A DNA stretch of 32,000 nucleotides from Cyclobacterium sp. 1_MG-2023 (GTDB lineage Bacteria > Bacteroidota > Bacteroidia > Cytophagales > Cyclobacteriaceae): contig NZ_JAUOPC010000001.1 in NCBI RefSeq assembly GCF_030546805.1, positions 114,081 to 146,080 on the forward strand, written 5' to 3'. The notes beneath the pieces were generated by a model. The model made no database searches and was not told the DNA's origin. It saw only the letters and a program-made list of their open reading frames with translations. Below are positions 1 through 24,657 of the stretch, one piece after another (position 1 is the stretch's first letter; each line of letters begins with the position of its first letter). A program made the translations under genes and the position numbers.

Positions 1-729
1 AGTAATAATTTCAATTTGTTCATTATACTCGGTGTTGCAGGTCTCATTTATCCAATTACCGTTCAATCTTCCACAGCATGGAAAGAAATTCCTATTTCCC
101 TGATTGTCGCCTTATTATTGTTGGTCCTGGCCAACGATTTTTTTATAAATCAAAACCCTGAACTTTCAAACATTGACGGCCTGATTTTATTGACCGGATT
201 TGTTTGTTTTATTTATTATGTTTTTACCCAATTGAAACAAGAAAAATCTGAAGTGATTGCCTATGAAGAAAAATCAAATTATAAAATTGGGGCATTAATT
301 ATAGTTGGCATGGCTGGGCTTATCATTGGAGGGAAATTAGTGGTCGACAACAGTATAAATATGGCGACTGAATTAGGCGTTAGTCAAAAAATAATAGGTT
401 TAACCATAGTTGCTGCCGGAACCTCCCTTCCGGAATTGGTTACATCAATGGTTGCAGCCATAAGAAAGAATAGCGATATCGCCATTGGAAACGTAATTGG
501 TTCAAATATCTTTAATGTTCTGTTAATACTTTCCATCAGTTCGTTTGTAAATCCAATTGAATACAACCCGAATTTTAATCAGGATTTATTAATATTAATA
601 GGAGGTACTGTTTTTCTACTTTTGGCAATGTTTACCGGAAAAAGAAAAAAACTTGATCGGTGGGAGGCTTTAATCTTATTAAGTTTCTATTTGATTTACA
701 CGACCTTTTTGGTATCAAAAGAAATATAA
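1..729 (+). CDS. Ca2+/Na+ antiporter (CaCA/YrbG family), C-terminal part; the 5' end lies outside the window
   Basis: The frame is open from base 1, with no stop before the TTG at 16. The protein is multi-pass and hydrophobic and carries the CaCA alpha-repeat signature GTSLPELVTSMVAAIRKNSDIAIGNVIGSNIFNVLLIL. Confidence 0.85.
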   Translation, partial: SNNFNLFIILGVAGLIYPITVQSSTAWKEIPISLIVALLLLVLANDFFINQNPELSNIDGLILLTGFVCFIYYVFTQLKQEKSEVIAYEEKSNYKIGALIIVGMAGLIIGGKLVVDNSINMATELGVSQKIIGLTIVAAGTSLPELVTSMVAAIRKNSDIAIGNVIGSNIFNVLLILSISSFVNPIEYNPNFNQDLLILIGGTVFLLLAMFTGKRKKLDRWEALILLSFYLIYTTFLVSKEI

Positions 730-737
730 AAAACCAA

Positions 738-824
738 TAACTAAAAATCCTATGACCAGATACTGGTCGTTGAGCTGGTCGAAGGGTACTTTCTATACTG
801 AAAAACAGATGGATTGAAAAATCT
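738..824 (+). repeat. Junction repeat, P-type copy 1 (87 nt)
   Basis: It starts 9 nt after the CaCA stop. The left motif is TAACTAAAAATCCTATGAC, followed by a GACCAG-ata-CTGGTC hairpin at 754-768, a REP-like GAGCTGGTCGAAGGG core, and the right end GATGGATTGAAAAATCT. It is homologous to 1997-2071 and 6083-6150. Confidence 0.85.
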
Positions 825-891
825 ACCGGGATAAACCGGATTCTGTAGTTAAAGTAGAATTGACCTATGAGGTTAGTGTGGACAAAAATAG

Positions 892-950
892 AAATTCAAT
901 AAAACCTTAGTTTGACTAAAGAATTCCTTGTCTGAAATGTTTAATTTAAC
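892..950 (+). repeat. Junction repeat, R-core copy 1 (59 nt, diverged)
   Basis: The sequence is AAATTCAATAAAACCTTAGTTTGACTAAAGAATTCCTTGTCTGAAATGTTTAATTTAAC. It aligns without gaps to the cores at 5019, 7880, 9007 and 10591. Confidence 0.75.
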
Positions 951-1105
951 AAGTGTTTTAAACCATGGAGTTTGGTGTATATGCCTTTAAATGCTACTCC
1001 TAATATAAATAGGTAGGTAAACAGTTGTTCGACTCAATTAAAAAATAAGTAATTTTACACCCATTAGCCTGTAATTTTTCGTATAATAAGCAAAAGGGAA
1101 AAGAT

Positions 1106-1525
1106 ATGAATTCAACCAAAGATTCAATTAAAGATATTCCTGAGAAAATTTCAGATAGCCAGGTGGTTACCTATATACATTCAGGAGATTTAGGAACAAA
1201 ACAAGTTAAACTCTTCAAAACCTTGACTCATTCAAGCGATAAAGTCATTTCTGAATGGTTTGATGTTAGTGAAAAAACTTTCTATAGTTATAGAACCACT
1301 ACAGCAAAATTAAATATAAATTTCAAAGAAAAACTACTTTTATTAATATCCTTGTATAAACTAGGAGAAAGAGTTTTCGGCTCCAAAAAAGCATTTAATG
1401 ATTGGTTGGAAAAACCTAATTTTCATTTTAACAATAAACAACCTGTAGATTTTTTTAAAACCATTTCTGGTATTAGATATATTGAGGACAGATTAACCGG
1501 AATGCTATATGGAGATAATGCTTAA
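1106..1525 (+). CDS. Xre/MbcA/ParS-type antitoxin (DUF2384 toxin-binding domain) of a RES-Xre type II TA pair
   Basis: The C-terminal region AFNDWLEKPNFHFNNKQPVDFFKTISGIRYIEDRLTGMLYG matches the DUF2384 pattern. There is an HTH-like middle part. The gene ends 2 nt before the RES gene start. Confidence 0.85.
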   Translation: MNSTKDSIKDIPEKISDSQVVTYIHSGDLGTKQVKLFKTLTHSSDKVISEWFDVSEKTFYSYRTTTAKLNINFKEKLLLLISLYKLGERVFGSKKAFNDWLEKPNFHFNNKQPVDFFKTISGIRYIEDRLTGMLYGDNA

Positions 1526-1527
1526 TT

Positions 1528-1983
1528 ATGGAAGTATACAGAATTTCACACAAAGATTACTCAAAAGTATTATCAAGTGCTGGTTCATCAAACAGGTGGA
1601 ATTATGAGGGTGAATATGTTATTTATACAGGTTCTTCCAGGTCATTATCAACATTGGAGTTAATTGTTCATAGAAATTCCATTAAAAAGCTTCCTGATTA
1701 TGAAATGATGATCTTGTCAATAGCTGATGAAGATAATTTAATGGAGCAAATTTTAATCAAAAAATTACCGGCTAATTGGCGTTCATTTACATCCTATTTT
1801 AAATTACAAAAAATAGGTTCAGCCTGGTATAAAAAACAAAGCTCCTTAGTACTGAAAGTACCTTCTGCGGTAATACCAAAAGAATACAACTATATTATTA
1901 ACACAAAACATCCTACCTTCAATACGAATGTCTTATTAGTTAGAAACGAAGAATATTTTTTTGATGAAAGATTGTTTGAATAA
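1528..1983 (+). CDS. RES-domain toxin (MbcT/ParT-like NAD+-targeting family)
   Basis: The R, E and S signature positions are present in context: SSNRWNYEG (R), LSTLELIVHR (E) and LKVPSAVIPKEYNYIINTKHPTF (S). The gene is tightly coupled to the upstream antitoxin. Confidence 0.9.
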   Translation: MEVYRISHKDYSKVLSSAGSSNRWNYEGEYVIYTGSSRSLSTLELIVHRNSIKKLPDYEMMILSIADEDNLMEQILIKKLPANWRSFTSYFKLQKIGSAWYKKQSSLVLKVPSAVIPKEYNYIINTKHPTFNTNVLLVRNEEYFFDERLFE

Positions 1984-1996
1984 AAACTGTATTTCT

Positions 1997-2071
1997 TAAC
2001 TAAATATCCTATGATTGTCGCTTACCCAAACCGGTCCCTGAGGCTGTCGAAGGGTATCGATTGGAAAATCT
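1997..2071 (+). repeat. Junction repeat, P-type copy 2 (75 nt)
   Basis: The sequence is TAACTAAATATCCTATGAT...GGTCCCTGAGGCTGTCGAAGGGTATCGATTGGAAAATCT. It shares its left motif and right end with copy 1. Its right end abuts the truncated serine-hydrolase reading frame. Confidence 0.85.
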
Positions 2072-2870
2072 GGGGATTGCACATGACAATGGTTTAATAG
2101 GTGACTTGGACCAACCCATTCAATATTTTTTCCCCAAATACATCGATATCCTGCACACCGCTACCTGGCCGGTAAGCCTGAAAGATGCACTTACAATGTC
2201 TGCAGGATTGGACTGGAATAAATGGGAACTTCCTATATCAGACCCGGAAAATGAAGTAATAAAAATGCTTTTCAGTCAAGACATGTATGATTATGTATTG
2301 AAACGAAATATTGTCACCGGAACTCAACCGGGAGATAAGTTCGAGTACAACAGTGGCCTCTCGGTACTGCTTGGTGGTGTTATACTAGATGCTACCGGAA
2401 TGCCAGCTGATACATATGCCGAAAAAACATTGTTCAATCAATTGGGAATCCAACATTACAATTGGTTTTCCCTTACAGACGAAGTTCATACAGGTGGTGG
2501 ACTCTGGTTACAGCCCAGAGATTTTCTGAAAATGGGCCAATTGGTACTTGGTAGGGGAAAATGGAATAAATAACAGATAATTTCTGAATCTTGGATAGAA
2601 GAATCTACTGCCTTTCATCTACCACACTTGGAAAACAGTGGTTACGGTTATCAATGGTGGCGAGGTGAATTGAATGTAGATGAAATGAAATTCCCTATAA
2701 TTTATGTAGCCGGCTACGGTGGACAATTTTTATTTATAGTTCCTGATTTGGACCTTGTAACTTTGTTCTTGCATCATAATCCAAAAGATTTGGAATTAAG
2801 CCATACCATGGCATGGAAAGAAATGGAGAAATTTATTGTTCCTTCTTTTATAAGAAGATTAAACCATTAA
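2061..2870 (+). pseudogene. Beta-lactamase-related serine hydrolase, 5'-truncated and interrupted by an in-frame TAA
   Basis: The ORF pieces 2061-2573 and 2628-2870 share a frame (offset 567 nt). One TAA at 2571-2573 splits them (GRGKWNK*QIISESWIEEST). LGIAHDNGLI, FEYNSGLSVLLGGVI and GYGYQWW resemble the C-terminal two thirds of class-C beta-lactamase/PBP-like hydrolases. The N-terminal SxxK part is missing, and the frame begins inside repeat P2. Confidence 0.75.
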
Positions 2871-2936
2871 CCTTATAATGCCAAGTGGCTAGTATCAACT
2901 TCTTTCGCTAAATTTATAAAATACCAAAAAAGGGTT

Positions 2937-3209
2937 ATGACGTCACAAACTTCTTGCAAGCATATCACTGCTATCTCAGAATTTAAAACAGCCAATGAGC
3001 ATGTTTGCGAAGAATGTGTAAAATTGGGTGATGGTTGGGTACATTTGCGCACATGTCAGGAATGTGGTGTTACGCTTTGTTGTGACAATTCTAAAAACAA
3101 GCATGCAACAGCTCATTATCGTTCCACTAACCACCCGGTTATTAGTTCAGGAGAACTTAATGAAAGGTGGCTTTGGTGTTATGCCGATAAAGCTTTTGTA
3201 ACCTATTAA
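2937..3209 (+). CDS. UBP-type zinc-finger protein
   Basis: This is a 90-aa Cys/His-rich protein. The pattern CKH...CEEC...HLRTCQECGVTLCCDNSKNKHATAHYRSTNHP...WCY is typical of bacterial zf-UBP proteins. Confidence 0.8.
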   Translation: MTSQTSCKHITAISEFKTANEHVCEECVKLGDGWVHLRTCQECGVTLCCDNSKNKHATAHYRSTNHPVISSGELNERWLWCYADKAFVTY

Positions 3210-3221
3210 ACCAAACCATTT

Positions 3222-4868
3222 ATGATAGATTCTAAATATCCGGAGTTAACCGAAATACAAGTTGAAAAACTTAAAACCTATGGTGAGGTTGAATTTTACA
3301 AAGAGCCTACGGTGGTGTTGGATTTTGGTGATCAGCATTACGATTTTTTTGTAGTACTCACCGGTGGAATAAGAATTATAGATCCTTATAAAAGAGAGGA
3401 TAGCATTGCCATCCACAGAAGACATCAGTTTTCTGGGTCTAGTAGTATTTTGTCTCATAGAACGGTTGGTGTTTGTGGCGAAACATTAGAAAACACACAG
3501 CTTATAAGAATAAGTCCAGAAAAATTAAAAAGTGCCATTGCTAAATTCAGTGATATTAGTGATGTGCTTTTGAACGCTTTTTTACAACGTGAAGATGCAC
3601 TGAAGAATAACGTACAAGGCATAAAACTTATTGGTTCTGAACACTCTAATGAAACTTATGCCATTCGTGATTTCATGGATAAAAATGATATCTGGTACAA
3701 TTTTATAGATTCTGATAAGGAAGAAGGATTGGTACAAATGTTAGCCACTTTCAATCTTAAGGAATCTGATTTACCTGTTTTAATCAATAGTCAGAATGAT
3801 ATTTCTATTCGTCCGTCTATAGATGAAATTGGAGAATGTACCGGTGTTCGTTTACAGCTAGATGATGAAATTTACGATGTACTGGTAGTTGGAGCGGGCC
3901 CGGCAGGATTGGCAGCTAGTGTGTATGCAGCTTCAGAAGGACTAAAAGTGTTGACTATTGATAGCAACTCCCCGGGTGGACAAGCTGGTAAGAGTTCTAA
4001 AATTGAAAATTACCTGGGCTTTCCTACAGGAATTTCCGGTAGGGATTTAGCGAATAATGGCTATATACAAGCACAAAAGTTTGGCTGTACCATTTCTGTA
4101 CCACATAGGGTAGAGGGCATAGAGCGAAAAGACAATTATTATCAAATCAGTTCTAGCAACACTTCTATTTTAAAAGCTAAAACAGTAATTGCGGCTACAG
4201 GTGCAGCCTATAGAAGGTTACCCTTAGAAGGTATTGAAAAATTTGAAGGTTCCGGTATATACTACAGCGCCACCTCTATGCATGCAAATATGTGCAGAAA
4301 TAGTGAAATTGGTATTGTGGGTGGTGGTAACTCAGCAGGTCAAGCAGCATTATTCTTGGCAAATTATGCGCATAAAGTTTATGTGATAATTAGAAATGAG
4401 GACATAGGTGCCAAAATGAGCGATTATCTGGTACAGCGTATTATCGCTTGTGAAAATATTGAAGTATTGACCGGTAGTAACGTGATAACAGTTGAGGGAA
4501 GCACCTATTTAGAAAAGGTTGAAATCAAGAAAAATGAGACCTTAGTTGAAAATGATATTGGTTATCTTTTCACATTTGTAGGAGCAAAGCCTTGCACAGA
4601 ATGGTTAGATACTATTATTGATACAGATGCCAAAGGTTTTGTACATACGGGACTTGCCATTTGTGACAATGCTTTAAATAGCGAACCTGAGTTTGGTCAG
4701 AGAAAGCCGTATACCTTTGAAACTAGTTTACCGGGATTATTTGCAGTTGGCGATGTACGCTCAGGTTCTGTAAAACGTGTAGCTTCTGCCGTAGGTGAAG
4801 GTTCTATTGTTGTAAGTGATATTCATAAATTTCTGGCCCAAGACAAATTTGCTACTACCGCAAATTAA
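3222..4868 (+). CDS. cNMP-binding-domain / thioredoxin-reductase-like FAD-dependent oxidoreductase
   Basis: The N-terminus has a cyclic-nucleotide-binding-like region. It is followed by DVLVVGAGPAGLAASVYA (FAD GxGxxG), IGIVGGGNSAGQAALFL (NAD(P)H site) and GLFAVGDVRSGSVKRVASAVGEGS (TrxR-fold C-terminus). Confidence 0.85.
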   Translation: MIDSKYPELTEIQVEKLKTYGEVEFYKEPTVVLDFGDQHYDFFVVLTGGIRIIDPYKREDSIAIHRRHQFSGSSSILSHRTVGVCGETLENTQLIRISPEKLKSAIAKFSDISDVLLNAFLQREDALKNNVQGIKLIGSEHSNETYAIRDFMDKNDIWYNFIDSDKEEGLVQMLATFNLKESDLPVLINSQNDISIRPSIDEIGECTGVRLQLDDEIYDVLVVGAGPAGLAASVYAASEGLKVLTIDSNSPGGQAGKSSKIENYLGFPTGISGRDLANNGYIQAQKFGCTISVPHRVEGIERKDNYYQISSSNTSILKAKTVIAATGAAYRRLPLEGIEKFEGSGIYYSATSMHANMCRNSEIGIVGGGNSAGQAALFLANYAHKVYVIIRNEDIGAKMSDYLVQRIIACENIEVLTGSNVITVEGSTYLEKVEIKKNETLVENDIGYLFTFVGAKPCTEWLDTIIDTDAKGFVHTGLAICDNALNSEPEFGQRKPYTFETSLPGLFAVGDVRSGSVKRVASAVGEGSIVVSDIHKFLAQDKFATTAN

Positions 4869-4893
4869 ACCATCTATGCAGTATAGAAGGGAT

Positions 4894-5077
4894 GTCTCAA
4901 ACTGATCAGTTTTTGCTCTATGGGCAATTTAAGTTAAATTTTATGCTGTTTAAATCTCGTATTTATTGTCGATCCAACGAAGCACAGCCTTTTAGCCATT
5001 TCCAGTCAATTTTCAACAGTTTCCATTAAAACTTTAGTGAGAGAGCAGGATTCCTTGGCTGAAATGCTTAATTTAAG
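4894..5077 (+). repeat. Junction repeat, long form A (~184 nt) ending in the R-core at 5019-5077
   Basis: It starts 26 nt after the preceding stop and is colinear with 8882-9065. The first 36 nt, GTCTCAAACTGATCAGTTTTTGCTCTATGGGCAATT, differ at 1 position. It contains the 14-bp palindrome AAACTGATCAGTTT at 4899-4912. Confidence 0.9.
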
Positions 5078-5138
5078 ATGGGCTTTGAAATGGAAAAGAA
5101 GGGGTAATATTCAAAATGTTAAAGCGAAGTACCATACA

Positions 5139-5198
5139 ACATTAGGAGTCTAACGATTAGAATACGCTTGAGTAGTTCTTATATTGTTTTCTTCAAAC
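5139..5198 (+). repeat. S-block repeat copy 1 (60 nt), upstream of the ABM gene
   Basis: The sequence is ACATTAGG...GCTTGAGTAGTTCTTATATTGTTTTCTTCAAAC. The last 33 nt differ at 2 positions from 8083-8115. Confidence 0.85.
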
Positions 5199-5234
5199 CT
5201 TAGATTCCTTAATGTTAGCCTTAAATTGCAAGCT

Positions 5235-5570
5235 ATGAACAGAAAGAAAAAAATCATCAGGACTTGGAAGGGATGGACTACATTAGATAATGCTTCAATT
5301 TATGAAAATATGCTTATCAATGAAGTGTTTCCTGAAGTAAAAAGGAAGGGTGTGGCAGGATTGGAGAAAGTGAGTATTTCGACAAGTGAAAAAAATGATG
5401 AGGTAGAATTTTTTCTTATACTTCAGTTTGAATCTTTGGAATCTGTGAAAATGTTTGCGGGTGAAAAATATGAATTGGCATATATCCCGGATAATGCTAA
5501 ACGTGTTTTGTCACGATATGATGCAACTGCTCAACACTTTACTATGAAAGAAGAATTAATACTTAAATAA
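5235..5570 (+). CDS. Antibiotic-biosynthesis-monooxygenase-like (ABM/Dabb fold) small protein
   Basis: I take the ATG at 5235 (MNRKKKIIRTWKGWTT...) as the start rather than the TTG at 5184. The pattern WKGWTT...YE..L..EVFP......EVEFF.I..FESLESVKMFAGE.YE.AYIP..A..VLSRYD resembles this small-protein family. Confidence 0.65.
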   Translation: MNRKKKIIRTWKGWTTLDNASIYENMLINEVFPEVKRKGVAGLEKVSISTSEKNDEVEFFLILQFESLESVKMFAGEKYELAYIPDNAKRVLSRYDATAQHFTMKEELILK

Positions 5571-5589
5571 ATTTGACCTACAAAACCTA

Positions 5590-6039
5590 TTGCGTTTAAC
5601 TAAACCGTTTGGCCAAATAAAAATACAAAACTTGGAGCTAATAACTTTAAAAACATTTGATAATTCAATTGAGGCTCACTTGATGAAATCTAAACTCAAA
5701 AGTGAGAATATTGTGTGCTTTTTATTTGATGAAAATATAGTAGGGCTTAATCCTGTATATAACATAGCAGTTGGTGGGATAAAGTTAAAGGTTATTAAAT
5801 CAGACATTGATAAGGCGAGTTTAATTTTAAAGGAGACTGAAAAAGCTAGGTTAACCAATGAAATTGGCGAAGTTATCATCTGTCCGGTTTGCCATTCAGA
5901 AGAAGTTTATGGTGGATTCAAATCAATGAAGGGAATAAAGGGGATAATATCAGCTATTACCTCATTCCTATTGATGGTTTATCCGATTTATTATAAGTCC
6001 ATTTACAAATGCAAAAAATGCGGAAAAGAATTTAAATAA
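5590..6039 (+). CDS. DUF2007-like (putative signal-transducing) protein with a C-terminal zinc ribbon and hydrophobic segment
   Basis: LITLKTFDNSIEAHLMKSKLKSENIVCFLFDEN is DUF2007-like. The ribbon is CPVCHSEE...CKKCGKEF. The start is uncertain, because only TTG candidates (5590, 5632) precede the domain. Confidence 0.6.
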   Translation: MRLTKPFGQIKIQNLELITLKTFDNSIEAHLMKSKLKSENIVCFLFDENIVGLNPVYNIAVGGIKLKVIKSDIDKASLILKETEKARLTNEIGEVIICPVCHSEEVYGGFKSMKGIKGIISAITSFLLMVYPIYYKSIYKCKKCGKEFK

Positions 6040-6082
6040 TGCCTCTGCAAAAAATACCAAGCATCCTGGCGAATGGAACAGT

Positions 6083-6150
6083 CCCAAACCGGATCCTGAA
6101 CCTGCCGAAGAGTCCTTTTTATAATGAAAAACGGATGGATTGAAAAATCT
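6083..6150 (+). repeat. Junction repeat, P-type copy 3 (68 nt clearly homologous)
   Basis: The sequence is CCCAAACCGGATCCTGAACCTGCCGAAGAGTCC...TTTTATAATGAAAAACGGATGGATTGAAAAATCT. It has the same right end as copies 1 and 2. It shares CCCAAACCGG with copy 2 and TATA(C/A)TGAAAAAC(A/G)GATGGATTGAAAAATCT with copy 1. Confidence 0.8.
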
Positions 6151-6531
6151 TGAGCCAAAGAGCCGGAATTCCTTGTTTATGGAGAGGTATTGGCTTAGTA
6201 TAATGAAATATTTTTATCCCTTTTGCCGAAAAGTATTCAAATTGAACGTATTAAATCCGTTTTTAGCTCATTTTATAAGGTTTTTTAAATCTTTTTACGG
6301 TTTGATGTTTTCGCAATTCTTAATTTAAAAAGTAAGTTAAGAAGGATGGATGCGTATAATCAAAAGCTATTACTCTTCTGGAAAGGCATTGCTAATTTTC
6401 GGTATCATCTCCGGTGTTTTAGTTTAACAATGCAATATGTAGTTCCAAAATTGGTTAATATAAAACTAAATATTATTTTAACATTTTAAGACGATTCAAT
6501 ACCTTAATCTAGTAAAACAAAAAGATCTGCT

Positions 6532-6963
6532 ATGAAATATTTATTTTCTATGAGTTTAACATTTTTTTCATTATGCGCATTTGCACAGGATTCAAAGACT
6601 TCATTGATGAAGATTGTTTTGGCTGATTCAGTAATTAATAAATATATGGCTGGTATTGGGAAAGAAGATATTAATGAATATAAATTATTTCATGGATCTG
6701 GGTATTATATCTTTAATGATGGAAATGTTGAATTTCAAGAACATAATGGTAACAATAGTAATGCTATACAAAAAGGAATTATCAAAAAGATAAAAATTAA
6801 TAAGAATAAGGCTATAGTGAAATTTTATACAGCTTCATGTAACAACACACGCGTCAGCTTGAAGAAAGAAGCAAAAAATTGGGAAATTAAATCGAGGCTG
6901 ATTTACAGAAGCTGGAAGCATCCAAAAAAACAACCTAAACTTGTATACTATAGTTTGAATTAA
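6532..6963 (+). CDS. Secreted hypothetical protein
   Basis: There is a clear signal peptide, MKYLFSMSLTFFSLCAFAQ. I recognise no family. Confidence 0.6.
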   Translation: MKYLFSMSLTFFSLCAFAQDSKTSLMKIVLADSVINKYMAGIGKEDINEYKLFHGSGYYIFNDGNVEFQEHNGNNSNAIQKGIIKKIKINKNKAIVKFYTASCNNTRVSLKKEAKNWEIKSRLIYRSWKHPKKQPKLVYYSLN

Positions 6964-7011
6964 AAATTTAGGATCGTCGTTGAATTTCTGATTTGAAATG
7001 TTCATTTTAAC
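6955..7011 (+). repeat. Junction repeat, degenerate R-core copy overlapping the stop codon of the preceding gene
   Basis: The sequence AATTAAAAATTTAGG...TGAATTTCTGATTTGAAATGTTCATTTTAAC aligns to ATTAAAACTTTAG...GGATTCCTTGGCTGAAATGCTTAATTTAAG. Confidence 0.55.
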
Positions 7012-7102
7012 AAATACATTAAGCAAAAGTAGAAGGGATATAATCCAAATAAGCAAAACTTCTATGCCAATTATGTATATACATATGTTTTAACAATTGA
7101 AA

Positions 7103-7648
7103 ATGAGAAAATTAAAACTTCAAATTCAACTTTCAATTGATGGATTCATCGCTGGTCCTAATGGAGAAATGGACTGGATGATTTGGAATTGGGATGATAA
7201 GCTAAAGGATTTCGTAACCCAACTAACGGAATCAACTGATACTATAGTTTTGGGTCGCAAACTGGCAGAAGGATTTATTCCATACTGGAGATCAAATAAG
7301 GAGTTGGAAGGTGCTGAAAAAATTAATAATTCTAAGAAAATAGTTTTTACCAAAACACTTGAAAGCTCGAACTGGGAAAATACCATTTTGGAAAAGGGAG
7401 ATTTGACAGATAAGATACAAAAATTAAAATCCTTAACTGGGAATGACATGATAGCCTATGGTGGGGGAGCATTTGTTTCATCACTAATCAAAGAAAATTT
7501 GATTGATGAATATTACTTTTTTATTAACCCTACTATTTTAGGTTACGGAATGCCAATATTTGAGAAAACTGACTATAATAAGGAGTTGAAGTTGGAAGAA
7601 GCAAAAGCTTATGAGTGTGGAATAACCGTTTTAAAGTATACGAATTGA
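7103..7648 (+). CDS. Dihydrofolate-reductase-family protein (RibD C-terminal domain type)
   Basis: MRKLKLQIQLSIDGFIAGPNGEMDWM...IVLGRKLAEGF...MIAYGGGAFVSSLIKENLIDEYYFFINPTILGYGMPIF fits the YwjB/RibD_C-like family. I prefer the ATG at 7103 over the TTG at 7097. Confidence 0.8.
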   Translation: MRKLKLQIQLSIDGFIAGPNGEMDWMIWNWDDKLKDFVTQLTESTDTIVLGRKLAEGFIPYWRSNKELEGAEKINNSKKIVFTKTLESSNWENTILEKGDLTDKIQKLKSLTGNDMIAYGGGAFVSSLIKENLIDEYYFFINPTILGYGMPIFEKTDYNKELKLEEAKAYECGITVLKYTN

Positions 7649-7680
7649 ACACAGTATTAATTTACACTCCCAGTTCAACC

Positions 7681-7938
7681 CCTATGACTCGATTAAGGCC
7701 TCGGTTCATTGTAGTCCTGTTCGATCAGTATTGGACTCGGCCTCTGCTAGCTTTTTATGTTGGATATTGGATAGTTTTGTTGGGGGAATTAGGAAGCAAT
7801 TGAATTTTTATATAGTGCCAATAAATATGACCAATTAGAGCTTTTTGTTCCCTTATCCATTTCTAGTCCATTTCCCACAGTTTCCATTAAAACATTAGGA
7901 TATCCAATGGATTCCTTGCCTGAAATCCTTAATTTACT
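7681..7938 (+). repeat. Junction repeat, long form C, ending in the R-core at 7880-7938
   Basis: The left motif CCTATGAC is followed by GATTAAGGCCTCGGTTCATTGTAGTCCTGTTCGATCAGTA, which is homologous to 10520-10560. Next come a GCAATTGAATTTTTAT segment related to 4926-4945 and then CCATTTC.AGTCCATTTCCCACAGTTTCCATTAAA. Confidence 0.8.
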
Positions 7939-7944
7939 AGAATA

Positions 7945-7985
7945 AAAAACCGAAATAGCGGTAAGGTTGTTCGGTTTCGGTTTTT
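7945..7985. terminator. Bidirectional terminator-like hairpin
   Basis: AAAAACCGAAA (7945-7955) and TTTCGGTTTTT (7975-7985) form a perfect 11-bp stem flanked by A and T tracts. It sits immediately after R-core copy C. Confidence 0.55.
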
Positions 7986-8055
7986 AATTAAATTTACGGG
8001 TGGGATCTGGAAGAGAAAGTCGTGCTATTACATGGCAAAAAAAGGCATAATTCCC

Positions 8056-8115
8056 ACATTAGGCATTTAGTAATTTGTACAAGCTTTAGTAGTTCTTATA
8101 TTGTATTCTTCAAAC
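8056..8115 (+). repeat. S-block repeat copy 2 (60 nt), upstream of the antitoxin/ParE pair
   Basis: The sequence is ACATTAGG...GCTTTAGTAGTTCTTATATTGTATTCTTCAAAC. See copy 1 at 5139-5198. Confidence 0.85.
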
Positions 8116-8202
8116 AGAAGATATCTCAGTTTCACTTCTCATAAGCTAAAAAATTAAAAAGTACACTATTATTAATAATTTGGAAACATAAAATACAATC
8201 TT

Positions 8203-8418
8203 ATGTCAAAGGTAAAAGACAAACTTATAGATCAAATTACATCCTTAAACGATGAGGAGCTATTGGAATCAATATCAAATATGGTGAGTCAATTAAGTGC
8301 TGATGGGACGATCGAATTGTCGGAAGAAGTGCAGCAGGAGCTAGAAAAAAGAAGCGCAGAAATTAAAAAAGGAAATTTTATGACAAACGAAGATTTTGTA
8401 AAGAGATTTAACAAATGA
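8203..8418 (+). CDS. Small antitoxin partner of the ParE/RelE-family toxin
   Basis: This is a 71-aa acidic helical protein. Its stop overlaps the toxin start in ATGA at 8415-8418, which is the classic type II TA arrangement. Confidence 0.7.
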   Translation: MSKVKDKLIDQITSLNDEELLESISNMVSQLSADGTIELSEEVQQELEKRSAEIKKGNFMTNEDFVKRFNK

Positions 8419-8711
8419 AATTGAAAACAATTTGGTCATTAGAAGCAATTTATGAATTTGAAGCTATTTGTGAATACTGGGACAAAAGAAACAATTCAAA
8501 TTTATATAGCCGTAAATTGTTCAAATTAACTCAAGAAGTTATTAAAATAATAGAGAAACACCCCAAATTGGGAGTAAATTCAAATTCAGCAAATATAAAA
8601 ATGAGACTTGTTGAAAATAATTACTATTTAATTTACAAAATTTGCGATGAACACATTGAAATTTTAAAATTTTGGGACACTAGGCAAAATCCGAAAAAGA
8701 GAAAATTTTAA
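8415..8711 (+). CDS. Type II toxin, RelE/ParE family
   Basis: The protein is 98 aa. The N-terminus IWSLEAIYEFEAICEYW and the C-terminus HIEILKFWDTRQNPKKRKF match the pattern of Bacteroidota ParE-like toxins (FD.RQNPKK tail). Confidence 0.8.
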   Translation: MKLKTIWSLEAIYEFEAICEYWDKRNNSNLYSRKLFKLTQEVIKIIEKHPKLGVNSNSANIKMRLVENNYYLIYKICDEHIEILKFWDTRQNPKKRKF

Positions 8712-8881
8712 AAAAACGAGAGGTAATTGAGTGATTGGCTACTAACTAAAAGCCTACAGAGTTTCCCTTACGATTTATCCCGAATATAGGGGACAAGGTA
8801 CCCTTAAAAAAATTAGCCTAAGCAGAACATTTTCCGTGTCTGCCCTTTATTTAGAAGGCTTTTTCTTTCAAGCATGTGTTA

Positions 8882-9065
8882 GTCTCAAACTGATCAGTTT
8901 TTGCTTTATGGGCAATTAAAGGTACAATTTGACACTGTATAAATCTCGCATTAATTGTCTACCCAATGCAGCAAATCCTTTAACCATTTCCAGACCATTT
9001 TCAGCAGTTTCCATTAAATTCTTAGTCTATTAACTGGATACTTTGTCTGGAATGCTTAATTTGGC
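8882..9065 (+). repeat. Junction repeat, long form B (~184 nt) ending in the R-core at 9007-9065
   Basis: It is colinear with 4894-5077. In this copy only, the core end forms a perfect 10-bp hairpin: TGCTTAATTT (9053-9062), ggcaggg, AAATTAAGCA (9070-9079). Confidence 0.9.
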
Positions 9066-9169
9066 AGGGAAATTAAGCAGAAGTGGCTGAGTGCTTAGTT
9101 GATAAATACATAACTCCTTAGATAAACTTACTTATATACATTTATTGTAGGTAATTGAAAAAAATGTAA

Positions 9170-9937
9170 ATGGCATATTCGTTTGATATTGTTGATCAAA
9201 AAGTAAATGAAACTGAATTCTTTTTGAAAAAGATGGTTGAAGCTGAGAGCAATTGGTTCGAATTCTCTTGCTATTTAACAGCATTCCTTTCTGCATCAAG
9301 AACCATTACACTCGCACTTCAACGATTTAAATTTATAGATGGATTTAATGACTGGTATGAACCACACCAGTCAGTTCTTAAGGGAGATCCATTAGCTAAA
9401 TTTTTTCTTGAAATTCGAAATGATAATGTGCATGGCGGACCGAACCCAGTTGTTGGAGTATCATTTTACCATGGTAAATCTAAATATCGTTTTAAGGAAC
9501 AGGACAAACTGGAGCATGGTGATATTGTTTCAAGTTGTCGAATACACTTTATAAAGCTGCTTGAAATTGTTCATGATTGTTATGTGGTGTTGGGAGTTCA
9601 TATTGACCCACAACAATATTACACAAAGGAAAATTTTTCAACATTAGGATGCAATATTAATGATGCTGAAGTAGAGATTTGGGGTTGGGTAATGACATCT
9701 TTTATTGATGATGGGATGGATGAAGATGACCGATGGCACGAATTAAGAGGAAGAGTTGGAGAGTGTCATATTAATCATCTCTTTAAAGGGTATTTAAATA
9801 AAGTCACGCCTCAACCTAATATTCCGGATAGAATACAGGACTTTGACTTTACTGATGAAGATAGAGGATGGACATACATTCCACCCGGGTTTAATACAAT
9901 AGACGATTATCTAAAAACAATTGACAAAATAAAGTAA
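9170..9937 (+). CDS. Hypothetical protein (255 aa) with a possible HEPN-like Rx4H motif
   Basis: The ORF is long and uninterrupted and I recognise no family. FFLEIRNDNVHGG contains R-N-x3-H, the spacing typical of HEPN active sites. This rests on the motif only. Confidence 0.5.
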   Translation: MAYSFDIVDQKVNETEFFLKKMVEAESNWFEFSCYLTAFLSASRTITLALQRFKFIDGFNDWYEPHQSVLKGDPLAKFFLEIRNDNVHGGPNPVVGVSFYHGKSKYRFKEQDKLEHGDIVSSCRIHFIKLLEIVHDCYVVLGVHIDPQQYYTKENFSTLGCNINDAEVEIWGWVMTSFIDDGMDEDDRWHELRGRVGECHINHLFKGYLNKVTPQPNIPDRIQDFDFTDEDRGWTYIPPGFNTIDDYLKTIDKIK

Positions 9938-10008
9938 CTACCTACACAATTGTGTAAAAATGCATTAAAACGTATTTTACACGAAACGTTGCCACACTTA
10001 TTCGAACC

Positions 10009-10476
10009 ATGAAACATTTCGCTTTTGGATTAACATTTATAATTATGACCTCTTGTGGACAGGCTGATATTCAAAGTGGACCACAAGCAGATAACTTGAA
10101 AGTAGAAGAACCTAATATCAAATCAGAAACTTTTGATGATGAAATTATAACCTTACTTTATGAAAAATTAGACTCTGGATTTGATATTGACTTTAAGCAA
10201 AACCATCTTGAGAGCATTTTAAAAAATCTAGATATATTGAGTTTAAAAGAGGGAGAGGAATTTGAAAAAGAAATGCTCTTCGAAGACTATAAATGTGACT
10301 GCCTTGACAAAATAAAAATCTATTATGATAAAGCGGATGACAGATTTATACTATGGGTCTATGAAGAATTTTATGAAACTGATTTAGATTGGTGTCCTGA
10401 AACCTCATATTCCTATTCTTTTCAAATTGTGAACCATAAAATTACGGACTTGAAATTGGACTTTATGGCCGGATAA
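10009..10476 (+). CDS. Hypothetical lipoprotein
   Basis: There is a signal peptide with a lipobox-like IIMTSC|GQ. The mature part is acidic. Confidence 0.6.
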   Translation: MKHFAFGLTFIIMTSCGQADIQSGPQADNLKVEEPNIKSETFDDEIITLLYEKLDSGFDIDFKQNHLESILKNLDILSLKEGEEFEKEMLFEDYKCDCLDKIKIYYDKADDRFILWVYEEFYETDLDWCPETSYSYSFQIVNHKITDLKLDFMAG

Positions 10477-10519
10477 AAAAAATAAAATACGTTTGGCAAC
10501 AATTAAGCTATAATTATGC

Positions 10520-10649
10520 GATTTAGCCTTCGGTTCATTATAGTCCCAATCGATCGGTATAGCTTAGCCAATTCCTGACCATATTCAACTGTTTCCATTA
10601 AATTCTTAGTCTATCTATTGGATACCTAGTCATAAACGCTTAATTTAAA
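10520..10649 (+). repeat. Junction repeat, short form D, ending in the R-core at 10591-10649
   Basis: GATTTAGCCTTCGGTTCATTATAGTCCCAATCGATCGGTAT is homologous to 7691-7730. The core matches the 9007 core at 47/59 positions by hand count, and the first 24 nt are identical. Confidence 0.85.
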
Positions 10650-10740
10650 AAGAAATCAATTCAGTCGGTACATAGCTGATTTATGTAACTACTTGGATAA
10701 ACTTAATTATTTACAGTTGTTAGCATACATTAAAAAAACT

Positions 10741-11118
10741 ATGAGTAAAATAGAATTAAACTTTTGCAAAATTGTTCAAGATTCTCAAGATTATGGGAGT
10801 AATAATGAGCATATGATTTCAAGAGTATACTTCACAGTTGATGAAAAAGAATATGAATGTAATGTTCGACAACCTTATGGAGAAAGTTTTTCATTTGAAA
10901 AGGATCCAATTGAAGTTGAAGCACCCGAAGAATTAAAAAAAATAATCAACTATGGACAATTTAGAGATGAAGTTGAAAATTATTTTCGAAAAGCCGTTAG
11001 TGCTAATGCACACGGAATCCGAATTGATGGAGGAATGAATATTAGAATGCGAAATAATACTATAGAGAATCCACACAAAACGAGTATTGACAAAGCAGGA
11101 ATAAGTGGTGCTTGGTAA
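10741..11118 (+). CDS. Hypothetical protein (orphan, 125 aa from the ATG at 10741)
   Basis: The frame is open and I recognise no family. I prefer the ATG at 10741 over the TTG at 10693. Confidence 0.5.
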   Translation: MSKIELNFCKIVQDSQDYGSNNEHMISRVYFTVDEKEYECNVRQPYGESFSFEKDPIEVEAPEELKKIINYGQFRDEVENYFRKAVSANAHGIRIDGGMNIRMRNNTIENPHKTSIDKAGISGAW

Positions 11119-11206
11119 AAAAAATGGTATGCTAATAACTAAGCATTCTGACATTTGGAACAGCCTAGTCTGAGTGCAATGAAAAGTTTAGGGAATATAT
11201 CAATAT

Positions 11207-11228
11207 CCCTTCGACAAGCTCAGGGACC
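11207..11228 (-). repeat. REP-like element (inverted copy of the P-type core)
   Basis: The reverse complement of CCCTTCGACAAGCTCAGGGACC is GGTCCCTGAGCTTGTCGAAGGG. This matches 2033-2054 (GGTCCCTGAGGCTGTCGAAGGG) at 20/22 positions. Confidence 0.8.
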
Positions 11229-11367
11229 AGTTCTAGTCTAGGCAATGGGTGCTGTTGGCTGTGTTTAAATTAGACTTGCTAGGGTAAATGATTTCCTTTT
11301 AATGTATGGCCTACAGCTAAGTGTGAGTAAGGTGAAAATACAATCCTTCTTTAAAATTGGTAATAAA

Positions 11368-11706
11368 ATGGAAACCAGTAAAGTATATCTCTGTAGAGTG
11401 GAAAGGTCGAAAATAAACGGTAATTATACTGTTTGGTTACCGGAACAACCGGACGATGATTTTGTTGATCTGTTGGTGGATAAAAATGATTTATTACAAG
11501 GGGAACTGTGGGGAATTCTTTTAAAAACCGGTGCCAGGGATAGCAACTTAGATGTTTCAAAGGTCTATTTTGCCCCTGAAGGAGATGTCTTTGTCTCCTA
11601 TACCAGCGATTATGAATTGAGTAAAAACATGGAGAAAATCCTAAATGAACTGATTTTAAATCAGGAGTACTTTATTAACATGGTCCACCTAAGCGGATTA
11701 GATTAG
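11368..11706 (+). CDS. Hypothetical protein (orphan, 112 aa from the ATG at 11368)
   Basis: The frame is open and I recognise no family. The start is uncertain (ATG at 11302 or 11368). Confidence 0.5.
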   Translation: METSKVYLCRVERSKINGNYTVWLPEQPDDDFVDLLVDKNDLLQGELWGILLKTGARDSNLDVSKVYFAPEGDVFVSYTSDYELSKNMEKILNELILNQEYFINMVHLSGLD

Positions 11707-11783
11707 TAATTGGCAGTATAACAGGTTATTTTTAATGACATTTTTATACCTTTAGCATTATCCGCTATAAAAGGTGTTCTATC

Positions 11784-13073
11784 ATGGTTTTACGTGCGCT
11801 TACCCTTCTTGTTTTTTCCTTTTCCATAGTCAATTTTGCCCAGGCACAAGTAAAATACAATAGGGTGGTGTTTAAACCCAACCCCTATGTAGAATACCAT
11901 CCCAATGGCAATATTTACAAAAAAGGTTTTGTGAATGCCGACAATCAATTCGTTGATACGCTAGCCATTTTCTTTCCCTCTGAAAAATTATCGATGACTG
12001 CCGTTTACGACAATGGGGTGCCGAATGGGTTATGCATTCATTACAATGAGGATGGCTCAATTAGTAGGGAAGGGCTATATGCACAAGGCAAAAAAGAAGG
12101 GCTTTGGATCTATAATAACTATGCTGAATCTAAAGATGGTCTTCCTTATCGCTTCACTGTGAATTATAAAAACGGCCAACTTCATGGAGAGACAATCCTT
12201 TATGAAGGAACACATAAAATCCGCTCCGTACATGCATTTTTAGGTAAACCCGCACCGAATACAATATGGGAAATGTATTACGATAATAGCGATAATTTAT
12301 GGGCTGTTGGCTTCATTTCCGATGACAATCAATTTACCTTGAGGGGCTTATATACGGAAGAGGGGAAATTTGTGGACAAGGTTGGGGTCAGTAAGGAAAA
12401 AACCGAAACTTTTTTAGAAGCCATGAGAACGTTTTATAAGTCCATCCCTAAACAAGAAATAAAGTCGACGTCCAAGGTCACCTATGAGAATAAGACAGTT
12501 ACACATAAATCCGTCCCCTTTAGCACTTATCACGCCAATGGGAAAGTTCATGAGAAAGGCTATCGCAATGCCAAAGAGCAGCTTGTTGGAAAGTTACAAA
12601 CCTTCTATTCGTCAGGCACTTTAAAATCCGAAATGTACTATTTCAATGGAGCGCTTCAAGGTGACTGTACGCATTATAATGAGGATGGTACCACTAAAAT
12701 GCAAGGCAAATATGCCAAAGGTAAAAAAGATGGTTTATGGATTTATCCTGATTACATCAAGAATAATGGGGCTAGGTTTAGTTATGAGGTACATTACAAA
12801 AACGACCTGGTTCATGGAGAAACCTTATTCATCCGTGGAGATGAAAAATGGTTGTTGATGACAGCTTCCGAAGGAGTATTGCTTGGGAAATGGGAAACCT
12901 ATTACCCAAATGGCAACCCATCAAGCTCTGGTTTGGTGAGTGCTGCCGGAGATGTTCTTACCCATAAAGTATTTGACAAAGAGGGTAAAAGACTGGTTAC
13001 GATGTTTTCACCGCCTACTCCTGAAAACTTAAGCAAGTCTATCAAGGATGTTTTTGCCACCATTCCTAAATAG
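11784..13073 (+). CDS. MORN-variant / YwqK-like repeat protein, secreted, internally duplicated
   Basis: There is a signal peptide ending FAQAQ. Repeated motifs of the type HYNEDGxxxxxGxYAxGKKxGLWIY and VxYKNxxxHGET occur. The two halves are offset by 633 nt. Confidence 0.6.
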   Translation: MVLRALTLLVFSFSIVNFAQAQVKYNRVVFKPNPYVEYHPNGNIYKKGFVNADNQFVDTLAIFFPSEKLSMTAVYDNGVPNGLCIHYNEDGSISREGLYAQGKKEGLWIYNNYAESKDGLPYRFTVNYKNGQLHGETILYEGTHKIRSVHAFLGKPAPNTIWEMYYDNSDNLWAVGFISDDNQFTLRGLYTEEGKFVDKVGVSKEKTETFLEAMRTFYKSIPKQEIKSTSKVTYENKTVTHKSVPFSTYHANGKVHEKGYRNAKEQLVGKLQTFYSSGTLKSEMYYFNGALQGDCTHYNEDGTTKMQGKYAKGKKDGLWIYPDYIKNNGARFSYEVHYKNDLVHGETLFIRGDEKWLLMTASEGVLLGKWETYYPNGNPSSSGLVSAAGDVLTHKVFDKEGKRLVTMFSPPTPENLSKSIKDVFATIPK

Positions 13074-13658
13074 TAAAACACATAAAAGGTAAGCATTAGT
13101 CGACTGAAGGAAGGTAAAAATACCCGAAGTGACAGGAAAGTACAGGAATCGGAAAGAAACCTGCGGGAATGCAATAGTAACACGAAGGAATGAAAAAGGA
13201 GGTTCTAGTTTCCGAGCCCTGTTTTTTTAAATATGGCATATGCCTTTTCCTAAACCTTTTAAATTGATCCGAATGATTCTTTAAAAAGTGCTTATGCTTT
13301 TGTTGCTAGAAAGAATAAACCTATCCACAGCGGATATTTTTAGGATATTTTTTAAAATTTAGGTGATGGATTAAATTTGACCCGAAAAGGGACAAATGTT
13401 TATAGTCAATGCTTTCAGGTTTGGTATACGACCCTTACAAGGTCTAATATCAGAGAAACCCATTTCTTCCTATTAACCTATAATCCCTTTAGGATCAAAA
13501 TGTCGTTATATTATTTTTATTACATAAGTACGTGATAGATAGAGGGATAATAAAATATAATGGTTATTTTAGATCAGCCAATTCCCGAAAGTGTCCCTAA
13601 ATCCTTCTTGTTCTAGGTCCCTTTCACCAACTCGATCTACAAAACAAATGACCCTCTC

Positions 13659-15064: not shown

Positions 15065-15112
15065 GATTTTGTCAGCATTGTTGCAGAAAAAAAGCAACAA
15101 TGCCGCCAAAAT
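15065..15112 (+). repeat. 48-nt hairpin element, copy 1 (directly after the VWA stop; possible terminator)
   Basis: GATTTTGTCAGCATTGTTGC-agaaaaaaa-GCAACAATGCCGCCAAAATC is a long imperfect palindrome. Related copies lie at 21957-22000 and 22370-22417. Confidence 0.85.
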
Positions 15113-21790: not shown

Positions 21791-21872
21791 TGATGTGGTG
21801 ATGTGGTGATCTGTGATGGGGTGATCTGGTGATTTGGTGATGTAGTGATCTGTGATTTGGTGATTTAGGATG
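21788..21872 (+). repeat. Degenerate tandem octamer array (NNGGTGAT, about 10 units)
   Basis: Reading from the stop codon, the units are GTGGTGAT GTGGTGAT CTGTGAT GGGGTGAT CTGGTGAT TTGGTGAT GTAGTGAT CTGTGAT TTGGTGAT TTAGGATG. Confidence 0.9.
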
Positions 21873-21956: not shown

Positions 21957-22000
21957 TTTGGCGGTATTATTGCTATTTCTGCAACAATGCTGACAAAAGC
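21957..22000 (-). repeat. 48-nt hairpin element, copy 2 (inverted relative to copy 1)
   Basis: TTTGGCGGTATTATTGCTATTTCTGCAACAATGCTGACAAAAGC is a near match to the reverse complement of 15065-15112. Confidence 0.8.
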
Positions 22001-22369: not shown

Positions 22370-22417
22370 GATTTTGGCGGTATTGTTGCTTATTTTCGCA
22401 ACAATGCTGACAAAATC
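22370..22417 (-). repeat. 48-nt hairpin element, copy 3 (inverted relative to copy 1)
   Basis: The sequence is GATTTTGGCGGTATTGTTGCTTATTTTCGCAACAATGCTGACAAAATC. It lies next to a CCCTTACGAAAAC...TTTTGTAG block (22284-27) related to 15155-15192. Confidence 0.85.
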
Positions 22418-24625: not shown

Positions 24626-24657
24626 TTTTTTTCTTTCGTTAGGCGCTAAATGGCCCC

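Follow-up and report, generated by a model that had tools for sequence, protein, structure and literature searches.

A 32,000-nucleotide (nt) stretch of the Cyclobacterium sp. 1_MG-2023 genome (contig NZ_JAUOPC010000001.1, positions 114,081 to 146,080 of the forward strand; here termed the window) contains an array of small, co-oriented genes, the junctions of which are occupied by copies of a directly repeated intergenic element. Comparison with related arrays revealed that this repeat is the conserved seam between swappable modules in a hypervariable part of the chromosome of marine Bacteroidota. It appears to be a recombination site, one that does without the DNA hairpin required by integrons. 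Whether it is indeed an att-type site of an integron-like cassette array, recognized by sequence in double-stranded DNA by a recombinase encoded elsewhere, is a question on which we consider the balance to be even.

Copies of the repeat and their distribution

A first-pass annotation of the window had described a 59-nt core in five direct copies (starting at 892, 5019, 7880, 9007, and 10591) that align without gaps, together with a degenerate sixth. The positions, the gap-free alignment, the single orientation (all copies lie on the + strand), and the hand-counted identities (44/59 between copies 5019 and 7880 and 47/59 between copies 9007 and 10591) proved exact on recount. The extent needs revision, in that the 59 nt hold as a core but the full unit covers ~105 nt by its profile envelope and is flanked by more conserved blocks. 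Likewise, four of the five copies are strong and share an extra ~35 to 40 nt on the left side, TTAGCCATTTCCAGACCATTTTCAACA, whereas in copy 892 the right half alone is conserved. The degenerate copy is real and overlaps the stop codon of the open reading frame (ORF) 6532-6963; it lies at 6949-7022 by profile (6953 by pattern). The string GTTTCCATTAAANNNTTAG occurs exactly four times in the window and six times with up to three mismatches, against 1.35 expected, a count of six being reached in 0 of 100 shuffles. A profile search yielded about 26 distinct copies; without exception, they lie inside arrays and have the orientation of the genes. Across these copies, the two subtypes reported earlier (AAAAC.TTAG and AAATTCTTAGTCTAT) and the variable center are again seen. 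The copies in the window, with related contigs compared with it denoted by L-numbers (L005, L055, L066, etc.), are as follows.

4982 to 5086, + strand: core copy at the junction of the oxidoreductase gene and the 111-aa gene; AAAAC subtype; nhmmer E = 1.4e-27
7847 to 7953, + strand: core copy at the junction of the RibD_C gene and the ParDE-like toxin-antitoxin (TA) pair; AAAAC subtype; nhmmer E = 1e-25
8971 to 9080, + strand: core copy at the junction of the ParDE-like TA pair and the 255-aa gene; AAATTC subtype; nhmmer E = 4.1e-31
10556 to 10663, + strand: core copy at the junction of the 155-aa and 125-aa genes; AAATTC subtype; nhmmer E = 8.6e-24
897 to 953, + strand: half copy 3' of the Na/Ca exchanger gene; nhmmer match to model positions 46 to 102 only; E = 8.8e-9
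6949 to 7022, + strand: degenerate copy at the stop codon of ORF 6532-6963; present at the same place in L008/L063, L066, and L069
5019 to 5030, + strand: invariant GTTTCCATTAAA, the predicted switch (crossover) region; exact in 4/4 strong copies, the others being at 7880-7891, 9007-9018, and 10591-10602

The relatives L005, L008, L011, L017, L021, L038, and L051 are the true matches from one marine metagenome pattern scan, and the whole arrays L055, L063, and L066 to L071 were obtained by protein look-up with the flanking VWA and Na/Ca exchanger genes; L055 is on TARA_SAMEA4398387 scaffold_133, and L070 is Ga0394809_000154. The VWA backbone gene has its nearest match in Cyclobacterium, its protein being 79 to 80% identical to proteins of an uncultured Cyclobacterium sp. 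and C. qasimii. No core copy was found in ~70 kb of flanking backbone (window 15 to 32 kb, L038 1 to 12.4 kb, and the flanks of L069, L011, and L021). A 20-base pattern gave just three chance matches among the GTDB species representatives, from which the lineage is absent or for which the pattern is too strict; three scans of viral contigs gave zero or chance matches and no attP-like copy, and a BLAST search of one whole junction against plasmids and phages gave no match.

Complete arrays span the interval from a gene for a 2705-aa type IX secretion system (T9SS)-type surface protein to the VWA gene and range from ~4 kb (L069, L070, and L071) to ~16 kb (L066). Their genes include TA pairs, TIR and Mrr-like genes, and many unknowns, and the partners brought together at equivalent repeats differ. 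To the right of the RibD_C repeat lies the ParDE-like pair in the window, a 158-aa gene in L066, and a 106-aa gene in L069; to the right of the left flank contributed by a 141-aa gene lies the Na/Ca exchanger gene in L063, a 114-aa gene in L066, and an 85-aa gene in L017. The 114-aa gene in turn stands 5' of the ParDE-like pair in L055 and 5' of the Na/Ca exchanger gene in L066. In L021, the same repeat is present at a different backbone locus, where it delimits a TIR-domain gene as well as ParDE and HigBA pairs. The copies are thus strongly associated with variable gene content among relatives. The first-pass annotation had allowed for the opposite outcome, namely, no link to variable content and a spread like that of a generic miniature inverted-repeat transposable element (MITE); the observed distribution is of a different kind.

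Each repeat joins halves of different origin

Several comparisons locate the point at which one junction gives way to another. Copy 7880 of the window and its counterpart in L055 share the right partner and differ in the left one; identity is ~60 to 70% on the left and ~95% on the right, and the last left-type mismatch is at 7881, which places the switch at 7881/7882. Conversely, copy 5019 shares its left partner with L008/L063 and differs in the right one; here, identity is ~90% up to 5030 and collapses past CCATTAAA, placing the switch at 5030/5031. At copy 9007, the left half is 97% identical to that of the L055 junction that is likewise located 3' of the ParDE-like TA pair. The unit bounded by such switches in the window recurs in L055 between other neighbors:

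7882 to 9009, + strand: complete cassette unit comprising a right half-core, leader, ParD/ParE-like pair, trailer A, and left half-core

An occupied/empty pair is provided by L063 and L066 (97.6% identity in the flanks). In L063, a single core separates the 141-aa gene from the Na/Ca exchanger gene; L066 has two cores around the 114-aa gene. The left junction of L066 consists of the resident left half and the cassette right half, and its right junction consists of the cassette left half and the resident right half, with both switches inside AG-TTTCC-(A/G)TTAAA, so that the two alleles differ by one module plus exactly one repeat. This arrangement of halves bears the signature of conservative recombination between two copies of the site and would fit the insertion or excision of a circular cassette.

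The same behavior is seen across pairs drawn from 17 junctions. Where only the right gene is shared, identity is 0.82 in the right half and 0.56 in the left; where only the left gene is shared, it is 0.66 in the left half and 0.67 in the right, against backgrounds of 0.53 (left) and 0.68 (right); the cosegregation of half-sites with their neighbors is significant (Mann-Whitney p = 0.0056). On this comparative evidence, each repeat is a hybrid, the left half of which moves with the upstream gene and the right half of which moves with the downstream gene, and we infer that the switch between them lies in or beside the invariant GTTTCCATTAAA. Only ~7 to 13 nt of identity are shared at the mapped switches, and stretches of 7 to 13 nt are short for RecA-type recombination. 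Movement between lineages is indicated by the ORF for the 114-aa membrane protein, which is 98.3% identical in DNA between L055 (3297-3680) and L066 (9233-9616), whereas the VWA genes of the two are 76.6% identical.

Anatomy of the junctions

Junctions are 260 to 550 nt long. From the stop codon of the upstream gene, a trailer (A or A') leads to the left half-core, in which CCATTTCCAG, CCATTTTCAAC, and (TT)CCATTAAA form direct repeats of a CCATT box. The invariant GTTTCCATTAAA follows and is succeeded by TTAG and ~10 variable bases, then by CTGGAT(T/A)C(C/T)TTG and (G/C)CTTAATTT, which is invariant in 26/26 copies. Beyond an A-rich spacer lie a block of the form GGGTGCATAGTTGATATATACGCAAYTCCTTGGATAAA and the motif TAYAWTTG, the latter 20 to 60 nt 5' of the ATG. 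The right flank of the core thereby runs on as a conserved leader of about 100 to 130 nt. The blocks recognized in the window are the following.

4894 to 4981, + strand: left trailer block A, repeated at 8882-8970 (repeat search); it carries the palindrome AAACTGATCAGTTT and then a T-run
7668 to 7846, + strand: left trailer block A', repeated at 10493-10555 (repeat search and alignment); it begins directly past the stop codon of the upstream gene
5139 to 5205, + strand: right leader block C, repeated at 8056-8122 and tied to the AAAAC subtype (repeat search)
9081 to 9146, + strand: right leader block C', repeated at 10664-10724 (repeat search and alignment of 14 extended copies); conserved in it are GTGCWTAGTTGATAWATAC...CCTTRGATAAAC and then TACATTTA / TACAGTTG, reminiscent of the Bacteroidetes -33 TTG and -7 TAnnTTTG, 20 to 30 nt 5' of the ATG
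9053 to 9079, + strand: perfect 10-bp hairpin TGCTTAATTT/AAATTAAGCA, perfect in this copy alone and weaker in a few relatives

Trailer A is found with both core subtypes, giving a mosaic pattern; across the window junctions, all four combinations of trailer (A or A') with core subtype plus leader (C or C') are present.

The promoter elements of Bacteroidetes are a -33 TTG and a -7 TAnnTTTG. The GGGTGCATAGTTGATATATACGCAAYTCCTTGGATAAA-form block and TAYAWTTG, which became visible only through alignment of the extended junctions, resemble this pair, and we infer that they may act as a promoter. An exact TAnnTTTG is absent 3' of the core in the window junctions, and sigma-70-type sites are no more frequent than expected (51 against 53). 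The leader of the ParDE-like cassette begins, immediately beside core 7880, with a 15-bp hairpin of 93% complementarity (AATAAAAAACCGAAA / TTTCGGTTTTTAATT, window 7941-7989) that is conserved in L055. It resembles a bidirectional terminator and would separate the core from the promoter region of the cassette.

Folding and coding potential

The first-pass annotation had found by eye no stem conserved in all copies and had reported a hairpin private to copy 9007. Both observations stand, in that RNAalifold yields no consensus structure on either strand and copy 9007 is the sole copy that folds better than its shuffles (z about -2.3), which it owes to that private hairpin. Folding of single copies as DNA gave z of about -0.7 to +1.1 for 5/6 copies on both strands. 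Eighteen aligned cores gave 0 pairs on either strand, and 14 junctions aligned from -40 to +185 gave -0.4 and 0 kcal/mol on the two strands; whole junctions have no end-to-end pairing. The sole dyad in the consensus, CATTTCCAGAC / GTCTGGAATG, is weak, with 70% of cells paired versus 26 to 46% when the partner is slid; it displays no covariation, and 255/500 shuffles are equally good. No Rfam family matched the window at gathering thresholds, and the window contains no tRNA or tmRNA.

A positive control was provided by true integron arrays, L073:1-20954 and L072:1-20954, the latter from an uncultured Formosa sp. (GCA_947500765.1). These run for ~21 kb with nearly all genes on the + strand, separated by ~150-nt repeats whose ends are R''-like (CACAAC/CTAAC) and R'-like (GTTGTGG/GTTAGC); each is a classical integron-type cassette array of Flavobacteriia. 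One attC of L073 folds end to end (z = -3.3), and the core profile found nothing in either array. In L072 and L073, a homologous Na/Ca exchanger gene forms one cassette, its product being 85 to 87% identical in amino acid sequence to the L038 homologue. L069 keeps GTTGTGGTGC directly 5' of the ATG of its Na/Ca exchanger gene, and this retained box suggests that the gene probably entered the lineage as an integron cassette. The noncoding DNA upstream of this gene in L069 and L038 is too diverged for an empty-site comparison.

Reading frames through the core, METVENGLEM... on the minus strand and ...IFNSFH* on the plus strand, were considered and rejected as coding, as their lengths and stops vary between copies: ORFs on both strands measure 3 to 70 codons and are interrupted at differing places. 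The apparent peptide METVENGLEM arises from the iterated CCATT/AATGG boxes.

A proposed mechanism and its alternatives

The first-pass annotation had put forward a recombination site, a shared regulatory or leader element, and a small structured RNA. The first is now the best supported, the second remains the main rival, and the last is unsupported: Rfam gave no match, and neither strand has a consensus structure or covariation. As an att-type site, each repeat would comprise a left part, namely, the 3' trailer and a ~40-nt half-core with iterated CCATT(T) boxes, belonging to the upstream cassette, and a right part, namely, a ~45-nt half-core ending in the invariant CTTAATTT and the promoter-like leader, belonging to the downstream cassette, with the two parts joined in the invariant GTTTCCATTAAA. 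Conservative recombination between two such sites in double-stranded DNA would insert, excise, and reshuffle the cassettes; a sequence-specific recombinase encoded at another locus, most likely a tyrosine recombinase, would catalyze strand exchange within GTTTCC or directly beside it. A variable center framed by invariant blocks (CTTAATTT in 26/26 copies, along with TGGAT, TTAG, and CCATTAAA) would fit recognition by a sequence-specific protein. That the exchange is enzyme-catalyzed and site-specific and not homology-driven is a prediction of this model, as is the class of the recombinase. More tentatively, and with the chances in our view somewhat against it, the locus may represent a cassette-capture system of Bacteroidota distinct from integrons, combining an unstructured ~85- to 105-nt double-strand site, a GTTTCC crossover, CCATT boxes on one side, a promoter leader for each cassette, a trans-acting recombinase, and the apparent intake of genes (the Na/Ca exchanger gene being an example) that in neighboring Flavobacteriia travel as cassettes of classical integrons.

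A number of observations weigh against site-specific exchange. The apparent breakpoints are not all at the 12-mer: a rare left variant, AGACGATTTTCAATAG at -16 to -1, is common to L066_9837 and L038_13610, the left neighbors of which differ, and the segment shared by L063 and L069 extends to about -32. Even the clustering of breakpoints is indecisive, because homology-driven crossovers would also favor the longest invariant stretch. The high identity of the 114-aa ORF ends ~25 nt upstream and ~15 nt downstream of it and so excludes the half-cores, implying that some exchange is ORF-level and core-independent. L008/L063 also carry rearrangements away from the cores; for example, the 3' end of the Na/Ca exchanger gene is duplicated, and a Fic gene lies to the right of RibD_C without a core. 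Taken together with the exchange of the 114-aa ORF alone, this indicates that homology-driven events and ORF-level replacement act here too. The core lacks, by eye, the inverted-repeat symmetry of tyrosine recombinase sites, its boxes being direct repeats. A recombinase gene is absent from the complete arrays L063, L066, L069, and L070 and ~10 kb around them and, as with any Phage_integrase-type gene, from the whole 32-kb window, so that the enzyme is hypothetical. Finally, the evidence is comparative throughout.

Several of these points are accommodated by a portable regulatory module shared by the accessory genes, in which a terminator-like trailer and a promoter leader frame an upstream element. 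A common regulator or silencer would act on the core as its operator or upstream element, and recombination would be passive, with cassette differences arising via homologous recombination, gene conversion, slippage, and recombination with foreign arrays. We consider this a real possibility but a doubtful one. It is consistent with the ~130 nt conserved to the right of the core, which end in TAYAWTTG with an upstream CCTTGG 20 to 60 nt before start codons, and with breakpoints at more than one position, an exchange of the 114-aa ORF alone that is bounded in leader and trailer, and the lack of a recombinase nearby. However, the distance from core to start codon ranges from 22 to about 265 nt, the promoter searches described above gave neither an exact TAnnTTTG nor an excess of sigma-70-type sites, and the 7 to 13 nt of identity at the switches are short for RecA-dependent exchange. 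A regulatory module also leaves unexplained why the same 200- to 300-nt chassis sits on unrelated genes and why a left half-core is conserved 3' of each gene. Far less probable is that the repeat is a divergent integron attC and the array a cluster of attC sites lacking an integron integrase (CALIN), recombined as folded single-stranded DNA by IntI. The fold tests have already largely refuted this reading, given that the repeat has no hairpin, consensus structure, covariation, or end-to-end pairing, unlike the L073 control; moreover, its switch motif is GTTTCCA and not GTTRRRY, no intI is adjacent, and the core profile is blank in the true arrays L072 and L073. What speaks for it is the co-oriented, low-GC array with TA cassettes, as in sedentary chromosomal integrons, a GTT within the predicted switch, R''-like YYYAAC past some stop codons, GTTRRRY-like GTTGGGC, GTTGGAC, and GTTAGCA before many ORFs, and the status of the Na/Ca exchanger gene as a true integron cassette in related Flavobacteriia, with GTTGTGG kept upstream of it in L069.

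A MITE or a repetitive extragenic palindromic (REP)-type selfish repeat, abundant by chance in an intergenic-rich region, would be short, noncoding, and AT-rich like the present element and might account for the weak CATTTCCAGAC / GTCTGGAATG dyad and the company of other small repeat families. It is very improbable in view of the single orientation relative to genes, the absence of copies from the ~70 kb of flanking backbone, a unit without terminal inverted repeats or target duplications, and halves that belong to different neighbors. The least credible explanation is that the repeat encodes a small RNA, the 5' end of the minus-strand ORF, or the 3' end of the plus-strand ORF. Although the CAT of CCATTAAA supplies a minus-strand ATG opening ORFs of 31 to 32 codons in three window copies, and the plus-strand frame terminates at an invariant TAA, the variable interruption of these frames on both strands and the lack of any Rfam match or conserved fold leave little room for it.

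Relationship to known systems

The searchable literature yielded no account of this repeat. Of the described systems, integrons and CALINs come closest, and the locus resembles them in being a chromosomal array of co-oriented, low-GC small accessory genes, including TA and defense-type genes, with one hybrid repeat per cassette boundary and a content and order that vary between close relatives; like a CALIN, it has no adjacent integrase. It differs in that the site lacks the attC hairpin, the R''/L''-L'/R' boxes, and GTTRRRY at the switch and is conserved in sequence rather than structure. The switch maps to CAG-TTTCC-ATTAAA, where GTT is followed by TCC and not RRR; the GTTRRRY-like motifs lie ~150 nt to the right of it, just before the ORFs, and overlap the promoter-like block and not the mapped switch. 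Furthermore, cassettes here seem to carry their own leader and promoter 5' of the gene, whereas the integron attC lies 3' of the gene. Another parallel is attI1, which is recognized by sequence as double-stranded DNA and has direct-repeat accessory boxes to the left of a GTT-containing crossover, an arrangement reminiscent of the CCATT(T) boxes to the left of the CAG/TTTCC switch. Yet, attI occurs once per integron beside intI and has a folded attC as its main partner, while the present site recurs, would serve as both partners, and has no sequence similarity to known attI sites.

Modules between repeated double-strand att- or dif-like sites, with a recombinase possibly elsewhere and TA cargo, are also features of the tandem accretion of integrative and conjugative elements (ICEs) and cis-mobilizable elements (CIMEs) and of pdif modules and integrative mobile elements exploiting Xer (IMEXs). 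However, pdif sites alternate in orientation, and the sites here are all direct; inspection of the consensus by eye reveals direct CCATT boxes and no visible 11-6-11 dyad like that of the 28-bp dif site, in which two 11-bp inverted arms surround a 6-bp center; and, unlike integrative elements, the locus has no duplicated target gene end or tRNA.

The next closest system is found within the same phylum. The rAID-1 arrays of Bacteroidales, for which we follow the definition of doi 10.1101/2025.05.03.651265, consist of co-oriented short genes with a GC content below 41% and conserved repetitive intergenic motifs reminiscent of integrons; they are headed by a XerD-family tyrosine recombinase and carry orphan immunity genes, and their recombination mechanism is unresolved (doi 10.1101/471110; doi 10.1101/2025.05.03.651265). 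The present array shares with them, by description rather than by motif sequence, the phylum, the co-oriented low-GC short genes, and the intergenic motifs. It differs in having no contiguous recombinase and in cassettes that are mainly TA pairs, defense-like genes, and unknowns, its immunity-like genes being a weak Imm51 match and a MORN_2 gene that are both outside the core-bounded part; its host is marine and Cytophagia- or Flavobacteriia-like, rather than a gut Bacteroidales. As the defining hairpin and integrase of the one and the contiguous XerD-like recombinase of the other are missing, and the switch matches the R' box in its GTT alone, we do not file the locus under either integron/CALIN or rAID-1.

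Gene content of the array and other repeats in the region

Analysis of ORFs and Pfam domains revealed genes on the + strand only in window 1-15053, and the array occupies most of this segment:

730 to 13658, + strand: visible part of the cassette array, with co-oriented, low-GC small genes

It is flanked by the Na/Ca exchanger gene on the left and the VWA backbone gene on the right, extends beyond the left edge of the window, and has a GC content of 31 to 35%, versus 38 to 44% in the right-hand backbone. The segment includes the 3' part of the Na/Ca exchanger gene, an Xre/RES TA pair, and a stop-broken beta-lactamase-family gene; zf-UBP, cNMP-binding/pyridine-nucleotide oxidoreductase, DUF2007, and RibD_C genes and the ParD/ParE-like pair; and several family-less small genes, an Imm51-like gene, a MORN_2 gene, and the VWA gene. 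The Imm51 match is weak (E = 0.0017, below the cutoff), and this gene and the MORN_2 gene sit in a core-free part of the array. PADLOC and NCBIfam searches of the cassette proteins returned practically zero matches, and most cassettes are without a family; an exact look-up of one window protein gave no record. The beta-lactamase-family gene (2061-2870) has an in-frame TAA at 2571-2573 that divides it into ORFs 2061-2573 and 2628-2870 and appears to be a decaying cassette gene. In L011:11226-13203, 5' of the single core of that contig, we observed a second RelE/ParE-like TA pair, a family-less 95-aa gene fragment, and a 179-aa ORF judged by eye to resemble a fragment of a group II intron reverse transcriptase/maturase; this segment is more mobile-element debris at the array edge.

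Other repeats are interspersed in the region. A second junction family (window 757-824, 2025-2055, and 6083-6150, with the motif inverse at about 11208-11232) holds ...CTGAGSCTGTCGAAGGG... and ...GGATTGAAAAATCT and sits 3' of the Na/Ca exchanger, RES, and DUF2007 genes. It was considered as a degenerate attC and rejected, as it forms local hairpins only (z about -2.3 past the Na/Ca exchanger gene) with no end-to-end pairing. A hairpin repeat, TTTGTCAGCATTGTTGCAGAAAAAAAGCAACAATGCCGCCAAA, with an adjacent CCCCTAGGGG-type palindrome is present at window 15070-15112, past the VWA gene, and in inverted copies twice further right (21957-22000 and 22373-22415); it also occurs in L021 (477-599, just before the first cassette junction), L011 (952-1069), and L005 (25-281), and is probably a terminator or REP-like element. 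A ~270-nt insertion with GC-rich hairpins (CCCCTGACATTGTCAGGG) lies in the left half of the first junction past the giant T9SS protein gene in L066 (120-395) and L063 (960-1232) and is absent from L038. In the right-hand part of the window, 24035-25225 is a tandem duplication with a unit of ~890 nt and 73 to 76% identity that takes in two paralogous small genes (24275-24625 and 25167-25565) plus their upstream regions, and short tandem repeats of the GGTGATNT type occupy 21775-21860, at and just past the 3' end of the 388-aa ORF 20624-21790.

Implications

Integrons, the textbook example of how accessory genes are stockpiled and shuffled, are defined by a folded single-stranded attC and a dedicated integrase. 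To our knowledge, Bacteroidota are poor in classical integrons and have integron-like arrays, such as rAID-1, the recombination sites and mechanism of which are unknown. The locus described here offers a concrete, mappable site: its two halves are defined, its switch spans 12 nt, and both occupied and empty alleles occur naturally. Such a site could be used to seek the enzyme through phyletic co-occurrence, to look for cassette circles in marine metagenomes, and to ask whether double-strand, sequence-specific sites can sustain an integron-like economy of TA and defense cassettes. Should the repeat instead be a passive promoter module, it would still be a clear case of portable homology driving the turnover of a flexible island.

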